Source: a virus (Duplodnaviria; Heunggongvirae; Uroviricota; Caudoviricetes). From it: a DNA stretch of 27,280 nt. The stretch is from IMG/VR virus record IMGVR_UViG_2534681604_000001. The stretch is one strand, 5' to 3'. The notes beneath the pieces were generated by a model that ran no database searches, was not told the origin of the DNA, and saw only the letters and a program-made list of their open reading frames with translations. The translations under genes and the position numbers were made by a program. This document shows, piece by piece, positions 4,732 to 26,915 of this stretch (positions are counted from its first letter, which is position 1; each line of letters begins with the position of its first letter).

Positions 4732-4935
4732 ATGTACCGTATGGACAAAATCAGAGAATGGTTCAGTTACAGCTTCGGAGGACTGACTGCGATGGGTGGC
4801 ATTCTCTCCCTGAATGACTGGGCTGTCATCATTGGTATTCTTTGTACTGTCGGCACATTTGGCATCAACTGGTACTACAAGCGCAAAGAGCGCGAGGACA
4901 GATTGAATGGCAATGTCACCGGCACTACGAAATAG
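4732..4935 (+). CDS. Class II holin / pinholin (phage 21 S-type) with dual start
   Basis: Small protein with two TM segments, starts MYRMDKI… with ATGs at 4732 and 4741. Immediately precedes a SAR endolysin. Resembles S21 (MKSMDK…) dual-start architecture. Confidence 0.75.
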
Positions 4936-5410
4936 CGTAATAGCGGCGATAAGTGGCGGGGCTATTGCTATAGCATCTGTGTTAATCACTGGGCCAAGTG
5001 GTAACGATGGTCTGGAAGGTGTCAGCTACATACCATACAAAGATATTGTTGGTGTATGGACTGTATGTCACGGACACACCGGAAAAGACATCATGCTCGG
5101 TAAAACGTATACCGAAGCAGAATGCAAAGCCCTCCTGAATAAAGACCTTGCCACGGTCGCCAGACAAATTAACCCGTACATCAAAGTCGATATACCGGAA
5201 ACAACGCGCGGCGCTCTTTACTCGTTCGTCTACAACGTGGGGGCTGGCAATTTCAGAACATCGACGCTTCTTCGCAAAATAAACCAGGGCGATATCAAGG
5301 GCGCATGTGACCAGCTACGTCGCTGGGCATACGCTGGCGGTAAGCAATGGAAAGGCCTGATGACTCGTCGTGAGATTGAGCGTGAGGTCTGTTTGTGGGG
5401 GCAACAATGA
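4907..5410 (+). CDS. R: SAR endolysin (phage 21 R-type, T4 E-like lysozyme, GH24)
   Basis: N-terminal Gly/Ala-rich signal-anchor-release domain ([21 protein letters not shown]), followed by [23 protein letters not shown] catalytic region. Recognised as phage 21 R-like. gagga 8 nt upstream of ATG 4907. Confidence 0.9.
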
Positions 5411-5874
5411 GCAGGGTAACCGCGATTATCTCCGCTCTGGTTATCTGCATCATCGTCTGCCTGTCATGGGCTGTTAATCATTACCGTGATAATGCAATCG
5501 CCTACAAAGAACAGCGCGATAACAAGGCCAGTGAACTGGAGAAGGCGAACGCCACCATTACTGACATGCAGCAGCGCCAGCGTGATGCTGATGCACTCGA
5601 TGATAAATACACGAAGGAGTTAGCTGATGCGAAAGCTGAAAATGATGCTCTTCGGCGCAAGCTTGATAATGGTGGTCGGGTGCTCGTCAAAGGAAAATGC
5701 CCTGTGCCATCCTCAGCCGAAACCTCCAGCGCCTCCGGCATGGGCAATGATGCCACCGTCGAACTCTCTCCAGTTGCTGGACGAAACGTTCTCGGTATCC
5801 GGGACGGAATTATCCGCGACCAAACAGCACTGAGAACGCTTCAGGAATACATCAGGACGCAATGCCTTCGATGA
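5407..5874 (+). CDS. Rz: Rz i-spanin
   Basis: [31 protein letters not shown]… recognised as lambda Rz (N-terminal TM, coiled coil). ATG at 5407 overlaps the endolysin stop as ATGA. Confidence 0.9.
5627..5833 (+). CDS. Rz1: Rz1 o-spanin (lipoprotein, embedded in +1 frame of Rz)
   Basis: [23 protein letters not shown]… has a lipobox (VVGC) and Pro-rich region. Lies entirely inside Rz in another frame; aaggag 7 nt upstream of the ATG. Confidence 0.85.
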
Positions 5875-6365: not shown

Positions 6366-6776
6366 TTAGTGCGGAAATATTTGTGTAGTGTTCTGAATGT
6401 TCTCAGTAAAGAGTAATGAATTATCAAAGGTATAGTAATACCTTTTGTTTTCGTGGATATTTGTAATCCATCTGAAAACCCCTGCTGTAGCAAGATTTTT
6501 CCTGTATTCGTAAAATGATAACTCTCCTGATTTGAATCCTTTTAAGGTGGCTTCTATAAGGCATTTATTTTTTGAAAATCTTACATTTACAACCTTACCC
6601 TGTCCTTTTATTAAAACCGTATTATCGTTTTCAAGAACAAGATGAATATTCTCTGTAGCTAAATAGTAAATGTAATGTGAGACATTGTGACGTTTTAGTT
6701 CAGAATAAAACCAGTGATAGTTTAAATTATTTCGCACTTTATCGAATATTTGTTTAAAAATGGCAACCTGAGCCAT
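6366..6776 (-). CDS. Hypothetical protein, possibly YbcV-like (DUF1398), in AT-rich island
   Basis: Minus-strand ORF. Preferred start is the second ATG ([16 protein letters not shown]…), which has ggaagg 7 nt upstream; the ORF-track start at 6791 has no SD. Strongly AT-rich. Resemblance to DLP12 YbcV is from memory. Confidence 0.5.
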
Positions 6777-6832
6777 TGTAGTACCTTCCATGTGATATGA
6801 GGGGCGTAGTCTGCACGATTATCTAAATTGCT

Positions 6833-22769: not shown

Positions 22770-25700
22770 ATGGGTAAAGGCAGCAGTAAGGGGCATACCC
22801 CGCGCGAAGCGAAGGACAACCTGAAGTCCACGCAGTTGCTGAGTGTGATCGATGCCATCAGCGAAGGGCCGATTGAAGGTCCGGTGGATGGATTAAAAAG
22901 CGTGCTGCTGAACAGTACGCCAGTGCTGGACAGTGAGGGGAATACCAACATCTCCGGCGTCACGGTGGTGTTCCGGGCAGGTGAGCAGGAGCAGACACCG
23001 CCTGAGGGGTTTGAATCCTCCGGCTCCGAGACGGTGCTGGGTACGGAAGTGAAATACGACACGCCGATCATCCGGACCATCACGTCGGCAAACATCGACC
23101 GTCTGCGTTTTACCTTCGGTGTGCAGGCTCTGGTGGAAACCACCTCAAAAGGGGACCGGAATCCATCGGAAGTCCGCCTGCTGGTTCAGATACAACGTAA
23201 CGGTGGCTGGGTGACGGAAAAAGACATCACCATTAAGGGCAAAACCACCTCGCAGTATCTGGCATCGGTAGTGGTGGATAACCTGCCGCCGCGCCCGTTC
23301 AATATCCGGATGCGCAGGATGACACCGGACAGCACCACAGACCAGTTGCAGAACAAAACGCTCTGGTCGTCATACACCGAAATCATCGATGTGAAACAGT
23401 GCTACCCGAACACGGCACTGGTTGGCGTACAGGTGGACTCAGAGCAGTTCGGCAGTCAGCAGGTGAGCCGTAATTATCATCTTCGCGGGCGTATTCTGCA
23501 GGTGCCGTCGAACTATAACCCGCAGACGCGGCAATACAGCGGTATCTGGGACGGAACGTTTAAGCCAGCATACAGCAACAACATGGCCTGGTGTCTGTGG
23601 GATATGCTGACCCATCCGCGCTACGGCATGGGGAAACGTCTTGGTGCGGCGGATGTGGACAAATGGGCGCTGTATGTCATCGGCCAGCATTGCGATCAGT
23701 CGGTGCCGGACGGTTTTGGCGGCACGGAGCCGCGCATCACCTGTAATGCGTACCTGACCACACAGCGCAAGGCGTGGGATGTGCTCAGTGATTTCTGCTC
23801 TGCGATGCGCTGTATGCCGGTATGGAACGGGCAGACGCTGACGTTCGTGCAGGACCGGCCATCGGATAAGGTGTGGACCTATAACCGCAGTAATGTGGTG
23901 ATGCCGGATGATGGCGCGCCGTTCCGCTACAGCTTCAGCGCCCTGAAGGACCGCCATAATGCCGTTGAGGTGAACTGGATTGACCCGAATAACGGCTGGG
24001 AGACGGCGACAGAGCTTGTTGAAGATACGCAGGCCATTCTCCGTTACGGTCGTAATGTCACGAAGATGGACGCCTTTGGCTGTACCAGCCGGGGGCAGGC
24101 ACACCGAGCCGGGCTGTGGCTGATTAAAACGGAGCTGCTGGAAACGCAGACCGTGGATTTCAGCGTGGGCGCAGAAGGGCTTCGCCATGTACCGGGCGAT
24201 GTCATTGAAATCTGCGATGATGACTATGCGGGGATCAGCATCGGCGGGCGTGTGCTGGCGGTGAACAGCCAGACCCGGACACTGACGCTCGACCGTGAAA
24301 TCACGCTGCCATCTTCCGGCACCACGCTGATAAGCCTGGTTGACGGACAGGGGAATCCGGTCAGCGTGGAGGTCCAGTCCGTCACCGACGGCGTGAAGGT
24401 GAAAGTGAGCCGGGTTCCTGACGGCGTTGCCGAGTACAGCGTGTGGGGGCTGAAGCTGCCGACGCTGCGCCAGCGCCTGTTCCGCTGTGTGAGTATCCGT
24501 GAGAATGACGACGGCACGTATGCCATCACCGCCGTGCAGCATGTACCGGCAAAAGAGGCCATCGTGGATAACGGGGCGCACTTTGACGGTGACCAGAGCG
24601 GCACGGTGAATGGTGTCACGCCGCCAGCGGTGCAGCACCTGACCGCCGAAGTCACCGCAGACAGCGGGGAATATCAGGTGCTGGCGCGCTGGGACACGCC
24701 GAAGGTGGTGAAGGGCGTGAACTTCCTGCTTCGCCTGACCGTGGCTGCGGATGATGGCAGTGAACGGCTGGTCAGCACGGCCCGGACGACGGAAACCACA
24801 TACCGCTTCAGGCAACTGGCGCTGGGAAATTACAGGCTGACAGTCCGGGCGGCAAATGCCTGGGGGCAGCAGGGCGATCCGGCATCGGTATCGTTCCGGA
24901 TTGCCGCACCGGCAGCGCCGTCGCGGATTGAGCTGACGCCGGGCTATTTTCAGATAACCGCCACGCCGCATCTTGCCGTTTATGACCCGACGGTACAGTT
25001 TGAATTCTGGTTCTCGGAAAAGCGGATTGCGGATATCAGGCAGGTTGAAACCACAGCCCGCTATCTTGGCACGGCGCTGTACTGGATAGCTGCCAGTATC
25101 AATATCAAACCGGGCCATGATTATTATTTTTATGTTCGCAGTGTGAACACCGTTGGCAAATCGGCATTTGTGGAGGCTGTTGGTCAGCCGAGTGATGATG
25201 CGTCCGGCTATCTGGATTTTTTCAAAGGAGAGATAGGGAAAACCCATCTGGCTCAGGAGCTGTGGACGCAGATTGATAACGGTCAGCTTGCGCCTGACCT
25301 GACTGAAATCAGGACGTCCATAACGGATGTCAGCAATGAAATAACACAGACCGTCAATAAGAAACTGGAAGACCAGAGTGCAGCGATCCAGCAGATACAG
25401 AAGGTTCAGGTTGATACAAATAATAACCTGAACAGCATGTGGGCAGTGAAGCTGCAGCAGATGCAGGACGGACGCCTTTATATTGCGGGTATCGGTGCCG
25501 GTATTGAGAACACCCCCGACGGCATGCAGAGTCAGGTGCTGCTGGCTGCAGACCGGGTGGCATTTATTAACCCGGCGAATGGTAACACCACTCCTGCACT
25601 GGTCACACAGGGCGGACAGACGTTTATTAATGAGGCGCTGATCAAGTTCCTTATTGCTCCCACGATTACCAGTGGTGGCAATCCTCCGGCATTCTCCCTG

Positions 25701-26246
25701 ACACCTGACGGAAAGCTGACTGCTAAAAATGCGGATATCAGTGGCAGTGTGAATGCGAACGCCGGGACGCTCAACAACGTCACGATTAATGAGAGCTGTA
25801 CTATTAAGGGGATGCTTGATGCTAACCAGGTGCGTGGTGATTTTGTAAAAACGACAGGGCATCGATTTCCGCACCCCGGAGAATACCCACAGGGTTCACT
25901 TACCGTTCATATTAAGGACGATCATGCCTTTGACAGGCAGATTATAATTCAACCAATCATGTACGGTGCACCACCATATTTTAGTAAAAATGATGGCGCT
26001 AATATCTACGATACCTGCAGATTAATTGTGCGCAAAAATGGCAATGTAATCTATGACAAATCCACTAGTGGTTCGAAAAGGACAACAGTCGTGTACAGCA
26101 ATATCATTGATATGCCAGTGGGGGACGGAGATGTAATATTAACATTTGAAGTTCAGTCGAGCGGCAGTGGAGATCCCAGAACATGGATCAGTGATTTAAT
26201 GGTCTCGGTAACGAAAAAAGCCGCATCCGGTATCAGTATCAGTTGA
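22770..26246 (+). CDS. J: Tail tip / host-specificity protein J, with a divergent C-terminal domain
   Basis: 1158-aa protein. The N-terminal ~1000 aa are recognised as lambda gpJ; the last ~150 aa differ from lambda J as I recall it, and the encoding DNA is AT-richer. Confidence 0.9.
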
Positions 26247-26266
26247 AATTTTTATAACCCCAATAC

Positions 26267-26293
26267 GGGCGCCAGAAATGGCGCCTTTTTTAT
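26267..26293 (+). terminator. Intrinsic terminator after J
   Basis: ggcgcc-agaaat-ggcgcc perfect 6-bp GC stem, then ttttttatt. Confidence 0.65.
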
Positions 26294-26315
26294 TGCAGAA
26301 AAGCGAGAGGTAATT

Positions 26316-26915
26316 ATGCGTAAAGTTTGTGCAGCCATTTTTTCCGCAGCCATCTGTCTGGCCGTATCCGGTGCGCCTGCATGGGCGTCTGAACATCAGT
26401 CCACACTGAGCGCAGGGTATCTTCATGCCCGTACGAACGCACCCGGCAGCGATAATCTGAACGGGATTAACGTGAAATACCGTTATGAATTTACGGACAC
26501 GCTGGGGCTGATTACGTCTTTCAGTTATGCCGACGCAGAAGATGAACAAAAAACGCATTACAGCGATACCCGCTGGCATGAAGATTCCGTGCGTAACCGC
26601 TGGTTCAGCGTGATGGCGGGGCCGTCTGTGCGCGTGAATGAATGGTTCAGCGCGTATGCGATGGCGGGGGTGGCTTACAGCCGTGTTTCGACCTTCTCCG
26701 GGGATTATCTGCAGGTGACCGACAGCAAGGGGAAAACGCACGATGTGCTGACCGGAAGTGATGACGGTCGCCACAGCAACACGTCTCTGGCGTGGGGAGC
26801 TGGCGTGCAGTTTAACCCGACCGAATCCGTGGCCATTGATATTGCTTATGAAGGCTCCGGCAGTGGTGACTGGCGCACTGACGGTTTCATCGTGGGTGTC
26901 GGTTATAAATTCTGA
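26316..26915 (+). CDS. lom: Lom-like outer-membrane beta-barrel protein (Ail/Lom family)
   Basis: Signal peptide MRKVCAAIFSAAICLAVSGAPAWA and conserved C-terminus …AYEGSGSGDWRTDGFIVGVGYKF, in the lambda lom position between J and stf. Confidence 0.85.
   Translation: MRKVCAAIFSAAICLAVSGAPAWASEHQSTLSAGYLHARTNAPGSDNLNGINVKYRYEFTDTLGLITSFSYADAEDEQKTHYSDTRWHEDSVRNRWFSVMAGPSVRVNEWFSAYAMAGVAYSRVSTFSGDYLQVTDSKGKTHDVLTGSDDGRHSNTSLAWGAGVQFNPTESVAIDIAYEGSGSGDWRTDGFIVGVGYKF

Follow-up and report, generated by a model that had tools for sequence, protein, structure and literature searches.

A divergent receptor-binding domain allele of the tail-tip protein J in a lambda-like prophage and its probable exchange as a cassette

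The window, which is the whole 27,280-nucleotide stretch of DNA that was analyzed, is a lambda-like prophage. We found that the 3' end of its tail-tip gene J (~25790-26246) probably constitutes an exchangeable specificity cassette, and it encodes a divergent, homologous gpJ receptor-binding domain (RBD). The cassette would have entered by homologous recombination between a left junction block and a right flank that extends from the J stop across the intergenic region to lom. We place the probability of the whole explanation, that is, an exchangeable cassette, homologous recombination between its flanks, a conserved trigger and a likely trimeric-porin receptor, at about 0.85. Mosaicism of the J specificity region is well documented and belongs to textbook lambdoid biology; the allele itself is uncharacterized.

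Identity and distribution of the C-terminal domain

Gene J and its downstream surroundings were organized as follows:
22770..26246, + strand: J, tail-tip / central tail fibre protein, an intact ORF of 1158 aa (ORF list and translation)
25788..26243, + strand: RBD, J aa 1007-1158, PF12421 Ig_GpJ_C (Pfam, PDB matches and AF2/Foldseek)
26267..26296, + strand: terminator-like hairpin (26267-26286) and T-run in the J/lom intergenic region (consensus scan)
26316..26915, + strand: lom, Ail/Lom outer-membrane beta-barrel gene (PF06316, E 1e-125), outside the swapped cassette

In the rest of the window, genes for lysis and for the tail accompanied a head gene set of lambda type. An 853-aa ORF located directly upstream of the small tail-tip genes had the length of the lambda tape-measure protein gpH, and the morphogenesis gene set appeared complete. 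The lom gene was 82-100% identical to lom in many phages, with one short dip to ~60%; the annotation of mEp460 places a rho-independent terminator at the matching position between J and lom. A J protein identical to that of the window is on record from Escherichia fergusonii (WP_000515401.1 / EGC08272.1); accordingly, the window is most probably a lambdoid E. fergusonii prophage.

The J product contained the Pfam domains FNIII-A_GpJ, Phage-tail_3, Ig_J, Ig_J_second, Phage_Tail_Tip and Ig_GpJ_C. When it was compared with lambda J (NP_040600) by BLASTP, the overall identity was 82%, and this identity was distributed very unevenly along the protein:
J aa 1-805: ~97% identical to lambda J
J aa ~806-960: diverged from lambda J, with a 26-aa insertion
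J aa ~962-1006: near-identical to lambda J again, the near-identity reaching at least aa ~997
J aa 1007-1158: 43% identical to lambda J, with four indels

The initial annotation had described the product as recognizable lambda gpJ up to the boundary near 25790. This description held for the near-identity that extends to ~997, but the segment at 25230-25660 was already non-lambda and had been overlooked. It had further stated that the sequence beyond the boundary no longer resembles lambda J. The alignment to lambda J that it had proposed was performed and revealed that the C-terminus is not the lambda allele, as the identity drops to 43%; nevertheless, the C-terminus aligned with lambda J from end to end, which identifies it as a homologue, albeit a divergent one, rather than as an unrelated domain.

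The profile and structural searches were in agreement with this assignment. PF12421, which is described in Pfam as the C-terminal receptor binding domain of tip attachment protein J, matched J aa 1038-1158 with 106.7 bits (cutoff 26.2) and an E-value of 1.2e-30, covering profile positions 17-135 of 135. The beta-prism domain PF09327 (Phage_Tail_Tip) occupied aa 872-1000, after which PF12421 extended to the last J residue, and the full lambda-like J architecture was present upstream of PF12421. A PDB sequence search returned "A8 gpJ 713" (9wca, 9wcb) as the best match with an E-value of 1e-62, together with lambda gpJ (8xcj, 8xck, 8iyk and others) with an E-value of 3e-51, both of which were aligned to the last residue. 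An AF2 monomer model of aa 968-1158, with a mean pLDDT of 76.7 (moderate confidence), contained eight beta strands in the RBD. Upon searching with Foldseek, the top four matches were 8xck, 8xcj, 9wca and 9wcb (E ~4e-18 to 8e-17, TM 0.62-0.65), and the fifth match was far weaker (E 2e-5), by thirteen orders of magnitude. Additionally, the motifs DD..F[DN]RQ, NG and DMP.G.G were kept in every RBD class compared. On the basis of the model and these matches, the C-terminus is a homologous gpJ RBD with the predicted beta-sandwich fold of lambda and A8 gpJ.

The ~152-aa RBDs of representative phages were then compared pairwise. Their identities to the window RBD, and the receptors of the characterized groups, were as follows:
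lambda RBD: 43%; LamB, taken as established
434 / mEp460 / PhiR42_1 RBD: 51-54%; 434 uses OmpC (PMC11101478)
A8 / Stx1 / YYZ-2008 RBD: 49%; A8, which equals the Stx1-phage allele, uses OmpC (PMC11338833; 9wcb was solved with OmpC)
phage 21 / ev017 RBD: 48%; phage 21 natively uses LamB (PMC11336670)
PhiR40_1 / Stx2a_JNE / JLK-2012 (1A2) RBD: 45-46%; 1A2 uses OmpC (PMC11338833)
1162-aa J class from E. fergusonii and Salmonella: 45%
1720a-02 RBD: 41%

The window RBD, with indels relative to lambda in all four of the loops defined below, thus did not belong to the lambda allele. The other RBD classes were mostly 39-48% identical to one another, with the pair phi21/A8 and 1A2/JLK-2012 reaching 62-68%; as the window RBD was at least as far from the other classes as these were mutually, it was assigned to a separate class. 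Identity within the classes of the OmpC-specific alleles 434, A8 and 1A2 was 88-100%, and the window RBD fell outside all three. Megablast and blastn searches of 50,697 phage records gave no DNA-level match to the core of the RBD gene segment (25830-26210), and the 243 phage records that a tblastn search with the last 151 aa matched all stayed below 49% identity. In contrast to its absence from these records, the allele was present at ≥99% identity in 23 of 5426 complete E. coli genomes and at 98-99% in six IMG/VR prophage contigs, and a cluster of 80 partial NCBI proteins carried it at 96%. By these comparisons, the window RBD is an allele class of its own that is absent from sequenced isolated phages.

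The nearest protein found anywhere, at 57% identity, was the 208-aa product P0002 on a 6.5-kb Logan contig. The neighbours on this contig had Pfam matches to a helicase (UvsW_N/ResIII/DEAD) and to Peptidase_M15_3; they were judged not to look lambdoid, and the contig offered no clue to the receptor. A scan of the GTDB species-representative genomes with the RBD returned no relative and no clue to a donor lineage, and DNA probes of the allele gave no match in the supplementary sequences of the gpJ chimera paper (PMC11338833). In a machine-read fragment of that supplement, the last ~80 aa at the 3' end of 1A2 matched the JLK-2012 class. Blastn of the same fragment against the phage panel gave no match, as the fragment contains reading errors and its DNA is unlike that of the panel phages.

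Boundaries of the cassette and mosaic structure of J

The segments that define the mosaic structure at the 3' end of J were as follows:
25230..25660, + strand: earlier mosaic segment, J aa ~820-963, covering the alpha-helical shaft and upper beta-prism by alignment to the lambda domain map (domain names follow PMC11101478), with 26 aa more than lambda
25671..25800, + strand: conserved junction block, the proposed left recombination substrate, ~82-98% identical to lambda, 434 and mEp460 (25680-25784)
25830..26210, + strand: unique AT-rich cassette core, 29-73% identical to all panel phages (45-nt windows)
26220..26330, + strand: last J codons, intergenic region and start of lom, the proposed right recombination substrate

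In 60-nt windows, the DNA identity to lambda was 0.93-0.97 over 25680-25769, 0.62 over 25770-25829 and 0.37-0.57 beyond, so that it stepped from >90% to ~50% inside ~60 nt, and it rose again at the 3' end. Megablast alignments to the closest sequenced phages revealed that homology stops at 25798-25850 and restarts at ~26173-26220, with the restarted homology spanning the last J codons, the intergenic region and lom. The right flank (26220-26330) was ~71-100% identical to PhiR42_1, mEp460, 434, Stx1_1649 and JLK-2012, reaching 98-100% by 26280. The boundary originally placed at 25790 was off by no more than a few tens of bases, as the codon for aa 1007 starts at 25788, and it matched the point, lambda gpJ aa 964, at which the domain is swapped both in nature and by engineering (PMC11338833). 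Engineered gpJ chimeras were fused at this lambda residue, which is the same junction (PMC11338833).

The base composition changed at the same place. The GC profile across J suggested by the initial annotation confirmed a drop at 25800-26199, where 200-nt windows had a GC content of 0.39-0.445, compared with 0.55-0.66 in most of J. In particular, the RBD core (25830-26210) had a GC content of 0.428 versus 0.571 in the remaining J, and its GC3 was 0.40 versus 0.68, in accordance with the claim that the DNA turns AT-rich after the boundary. Low GC was nevertheless dropped as decisive proof of foreign origin, as ~5% of equal-sized windows across the 27-kb window were as AT-rich as the RBD core and most non-lambda RBD alleles were also AT-shifted (GC 0.47-0.51).

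Upstream of the junction block, the DNA of the shaft and upper prism segment at 25230-25660 showed gapped identities of 10-65% to lambda. The portion at 25200-25540 was ~100% identical to PhiR42_1, 89-100% (mostly ≥96%) identical to phage 21 and ~45% identical to lambda, 434 and mEp460, and the portion at 25560-25660 was only ~60% identical to every panel phage. The prophages that carry the RBD differed in their backbones. Five E. coli prophages with this RBD were 99-100% identical to the window over 25770-26246 and 91-99% identical over upstream J. The carrier in strain Z1323CEC0004 encoded a J of 1130 aa and was only 21-69% identical to the window over 25170-25720, two further E. coli carriers were 73-80% identical over 25470-25720, and the carrier in strain Santai had an HK97-type head module in place of that of lambda. 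Conversely, the protein cluster to which the window J belongs, defined at 90% identity, contained at least three different RBDs. Since the window RBD was present on distinct backbones, and backbones that are nearly the same carried distinct RBDs, the sequence comparison indicates that the J RBD is exchanged as a cassette at the conserved junction block. The proposal that the C-terminal receptor-binding module is replaced relative to lambda was thus borne out by the sharp break, the GC3 shift and the independent assortment of RBD and backbone.

We considered whether the same pattern could have arisen by gradual divergence of a vertically inherited J in place, without recombination, or whether the C-terminus could be a non-functional part of a decaying prophage relic. 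The former would be in keeping with the fast evolution of the J specificity region under diversifying selection (PMC6646904) and with the hypervariability of residue 1135 within the allele. However, it does not fit an identity step that takes place within ~60 nt with a return of identity at the 3' end, or a GC3 shift from 0.68 to 0.40 that touches synonymous sites, and it is contradicted by the free combination of RBDs and backbones described above; divergence in place is accordingly highly improbable. Decay would explain why the allele was seen in prophages only and never in a plaque-forming isolate, and IS elements are present in the adjacent side-fibre gene of some carriers. Yet the J ORF is intact over its 1158 aa, the 152 codons of the RBD are 98-100% conserved between the E. 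coli, E. fergusonii and IMG/VR prophages, whose backbones differ, the changes within the allele are concentrated in loops (five of six residues), and the morphogenesis gene set in the window appears intact. We therefore regard a relic as scarcely credible and retain cassette exchange as the preferred reading.

Predicted receptor-facing loops and candidate receptors

Four loops of the RBD were predicted to face the receptor, with the bottom and top loops assigned from strand alternation in the monomer AF2 model and from the match to published hotspots:
25863..25892, + strand: predicted loop L1, aa 1032-1041 (AF2 model), aligned to the lambda hotspot at residue 1012; RBD classes differ here by an indel of 6 columns
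25971..26012, + strand: predicted loop L2, aa 1068-1081, aligned to the lambda 1048/1049 hotspot; 8 indel columns
26064..26081, + strand: predicted loop L3, aa 1099-1104 (TSGSKR), at the lambda 1077/1078 hotspot; 3-aa insertion versus most classes
26163..26195, + strand: predicted loop L4, aa 1132-1142, aligned to lambda D1107; holds the hypervariable codon 1135 (26172-26174, GAT)

A previous comparison of 1207 natural J homologues revealed four peaks of indels and entropy at lambda residues 1012, 1048/9, 1077/8 and 1107 (PMC6646904), and L1-L4 coincided with these four hotspots in the alignment to lambda J. The lambda RBD inserts four bottom loops into LamB (PMC11101478), and the loop count in our model, four, agreed with this number. 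Most of the variation between classes was located in these loops, which held 20 of the 21 indel columns of the class alignment and were 17-29% identical to the other classes (7-21% for L2), compared with 48-50% in the strands and in the loops on the opposite (top) side. The conserved motifs DD..F[DN]RQ, NG and DMP.G.G were located in the loops opposite L1-L4. Judging from the model, L1-L4 are putative receptor-contacting loops.

The variation within the allele followed the same distribution. Among 17 copies, which are not independent of one another, six residues were variable (1073, 1074, 1076, 1103, 1119 and 1135), and five of these were located in L2-L4: 1073, 1074 and 1076 in L2, 1103 in L3 (K1103R) and 1135 in L4, with 1119 outside. 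Residue 1135 was D, E, A, Q or N in these non-independent copies, and the other 151 codons were almost invariant. The corresponding lambda residue, D1107, is one of two residues needed for the laboratory gain of OmpF use (PMC6646904).

In lambda, three RBDs at the fibre tip dock on the trimeric porin, whereupon the bottom of the trimer spreads and its top closes (PMC11101478); the beta-prism then twists, the helical shaft flips, the FNIII strings separate and the tip opens (PMC11101478). For the window phage, we infer an RBD homotrimer, its docking on a porin and the identity of the receptor by analogy. Three beta-sandwich RBDs at the tip of the central fibre would place their four bottom loops in the mouth of a trimeric porin on its extracellular side, and porin binding would push the three RBDs apart. 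This movement would be relayed via the conserved top of the RBD into the beta-prism and helical shaft, and the tail tip would open and allow DNA ejection. Because the window J retains the framework, the prism junction and the motifs in its top loops but has different sequence in all four bottom loops, the trigger is probably unchanged, and the mechanism would operate as in lambda with a different surface being recognized.

All five characterized RBD allele groups use LamB or OmpC, both of which are trimeric porins, with OmpC used by three of the five. By analogy, the receptor of the window phage is most likely a trimeric porin as well. A receptor other than that of lambda is plausible, but the suggestion that a different receptor follows from the divergence could not be upheld on that ground alone, as the phage 21 RBD is 48% identical to lambda and nevertheless natively uses LamB. 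The same RBD was 81% identical to that of A8, an OmpC user, and its use of LamB despite this resemblance indicates that sequence distance between RBDs is no predictor of the receptor; prediction of the receptor from the nearest allele was dropped on account of this counter-example. Specificity can also change in few steps, since one mutation confers OmpC use on phage 21, which evolves both OmpC and OmpF use (PMC11336670). Our single best guess is OmpC or a subset of OmpC variants, although we give it somewhat less than even odds. More tentatively, and on balance doubtfully, the receptor could be an outer-membrane protein new to lambda-type gpJ, for instance another trimeric porin such as OmpF, PhoE, NmpC or OmpN in the role of native receptor, or a narrow avian/E. 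fergusonii subset of OmpC, with residue 1135 serving as a specificity switch. A porin other than OmpC and LamB is, as such, rather unlikely.

Two further possibilities bear on the receptor, one being that the window RBD is a divergent LamB binder with the same receptor as lambda. As phage 21 uses LamB at 48% identity to lambda, the window RBD, with 43% to lambda and 48% to phage 21, is no more distant than a known LamB user, and the fold and trigger motifs are conserved. On the other hand, OmpC is the receptor in three of the five characterized groups, the closest characterized relatives (the 434 class, 51-54%) are OmpC users, and all four loops are unlike those of both LamB-using alleles in length or sequence; we consider a shared LamB specificity unlikely. 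The other possibility is a receptor that is not a porin: FhuA, BtuB or a similar protein of the outer membrane, for instance one of the monomeric TonB-dependent transporters. The J protein of Gifsy-1 has been reported to bind OmpX and BtuB besides OmpC (PMC12312913), and therefore non-porin contacts by J proteins are possible. However, the characterized PF12421 RBDs all dock three-fold on trimeric porins. FhuA and BtuB users, which the initial annotation had recommended as comparators, also proved a poor choice. HK022, a user of FhuA, has a J that ends after PF09327, without PF12421 and without similarity to the window C-terminus, and the additional C-terminal region of HK97 J is unrelated to the window RBD. 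Moreover, HK022 carries the Cor superinfection-exclusion gene (cor), whereas the annotation of the prophages carrying the allele shows no cor downstream of J, lom, stf and tfa, which argues against FhuA. A non-porin receptor is thus quite improbable, and a trimeric porin remains the preferred candidate.

Significance and comparison with known systems

The gpJ RBD is a classic model of host-range evolution (PMC6646904, PMC11336670), and gpJ RBD modules already serve in the retargeting of DNA delivery vectors based on lambda (PMC11338833). The window allele is a natural candidate module that is fusable at the established junction, and it would add one more specificity to this toolbox. Residue 1135 additionally offers a natural test of whether the lambda-1107 laboratory hotspot also tunes specificity in nature. 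The allele leaves the current picture of tail function as it is.

The closest characterized class was that of 434, mEp460 and PhiR42_1, which nearly shared the first ~20 RBD residues and the C-terminal tail with the window. The DNA of the 434 class was 76-80% identical to the window up to ~25845, and the shaft and prism segment upstream was ~100% identical in PhiR42_1. In contrast, the core DNA was only 29-73% identical between the 434 class and the window, and the lengths of the loops differed by 6 aa in L1 and 4 aa in L2. The A8 and 1A2 chimeras (PMC11338833; A8 PDB 9WCA, 9WCB) represent swaps of the same domain at the same junction. The L1 loop of A8 was equal in length to that of the window, with RBDs that were 49% identical. 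In phage 21, the shaft and prism segment (25200-25540) was 89-100% identical to the window and the RBD was 48% identical; unlike the window, phage 21 has no lom downstream of J.

The lambda gpJ RBD (aa 980-1132; 8XCJ, 8XCK) was similar to the window RBD in its family, its position after Phage_Tail_Tip, its fold as predicted for the window, its junction and its motifs. The two domains differed in that they were only 43% identical, with all four hotspot loops differing in length or sequence, and in that the GC content was 0.43 in the window RBD and 0.55 in the lambda RBD.

Variation within the tail-tip protein J

Upon comparison of copies of the J receptor-binding domain (RBD; J residues 1007-1158), a single hypervariable codon was found at J position 1135 (window 26172-26174), which encoded D, E, A, Q or N in a small sample of copies that were not independent of one another. 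The surrounding RBD allele was otherwise 98-100% conserved. A further RBD class was present in a J protein of 1162 residues (containing FPHDPRESEFKPWPSGT) from E. fergusonii and Salmonella Rissen, represented by proteins P0029, P0031, P0035 and P0036. The backbone of this protein was at least 90% identical to that of the window J, and the two RBDs shared 45% identity; the class is apparently uncharacterised.

Carriers of the RBD allele

As judged from the isolation sources of hits H61-H80 among complete E. coli genomes, the carriers of the RBD allele were enriched, in a purely descriptive sense, for isolates from poultry and other animals (duck, chicken, turkey and mink); some carriers were human isolates. 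In the carrier E. coli Z1323CEC0004, the side tail fibre gene located downstream of lom was interrupted by an ISVsa5-family IS4-like element (L015 5691-7223). In E. coli SM107, the prophage region of the window was found on a 111-kb non-chromosomal record (NZ_CP130669.1; hits H64 and H122), which showed 99.2% identity across 92% of the window, and the chromosome of this strain also contained the RBD segment 25790-26320 at 100% identity. A phage-plasmid or a duplicated region could account for this, as could an artefact of the assembly.

A reverse-strand reading frame near the lysis genes

An open reading frame lay between the lysis genes on one side and the terminase small subunit gene on the other, in the stretch where the window is richest in AT (GC 0.34-0.36).

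4907-5410, lysozyme gene, one of the flanking lysis genes
5395-5874, Rz gene, one of the flanking lysis genes
6366-6791, reverse strand, DUF1398-family reading frame of 141 residues (family match E 3e-43)

The DUF1398-family frame looks like a moron.

Comparison of the J shaft and prism with known phages

A second mosaic segment was observed within J (window 25230-25660), located in the alpha-helical shaft and the upper beta-prism; among E. coli prophages, this segment and the RBD assorted independently. Identity to each of the compared phages was only about 60% across 25560-25660. Across 25200-25540, identity was approximately 100% to PhiR42_1 and 89-100%, mostly at least 96%, to phage 21. 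Compared with lambda J, segment 25230-25660 carried an insertion of 26 residues.
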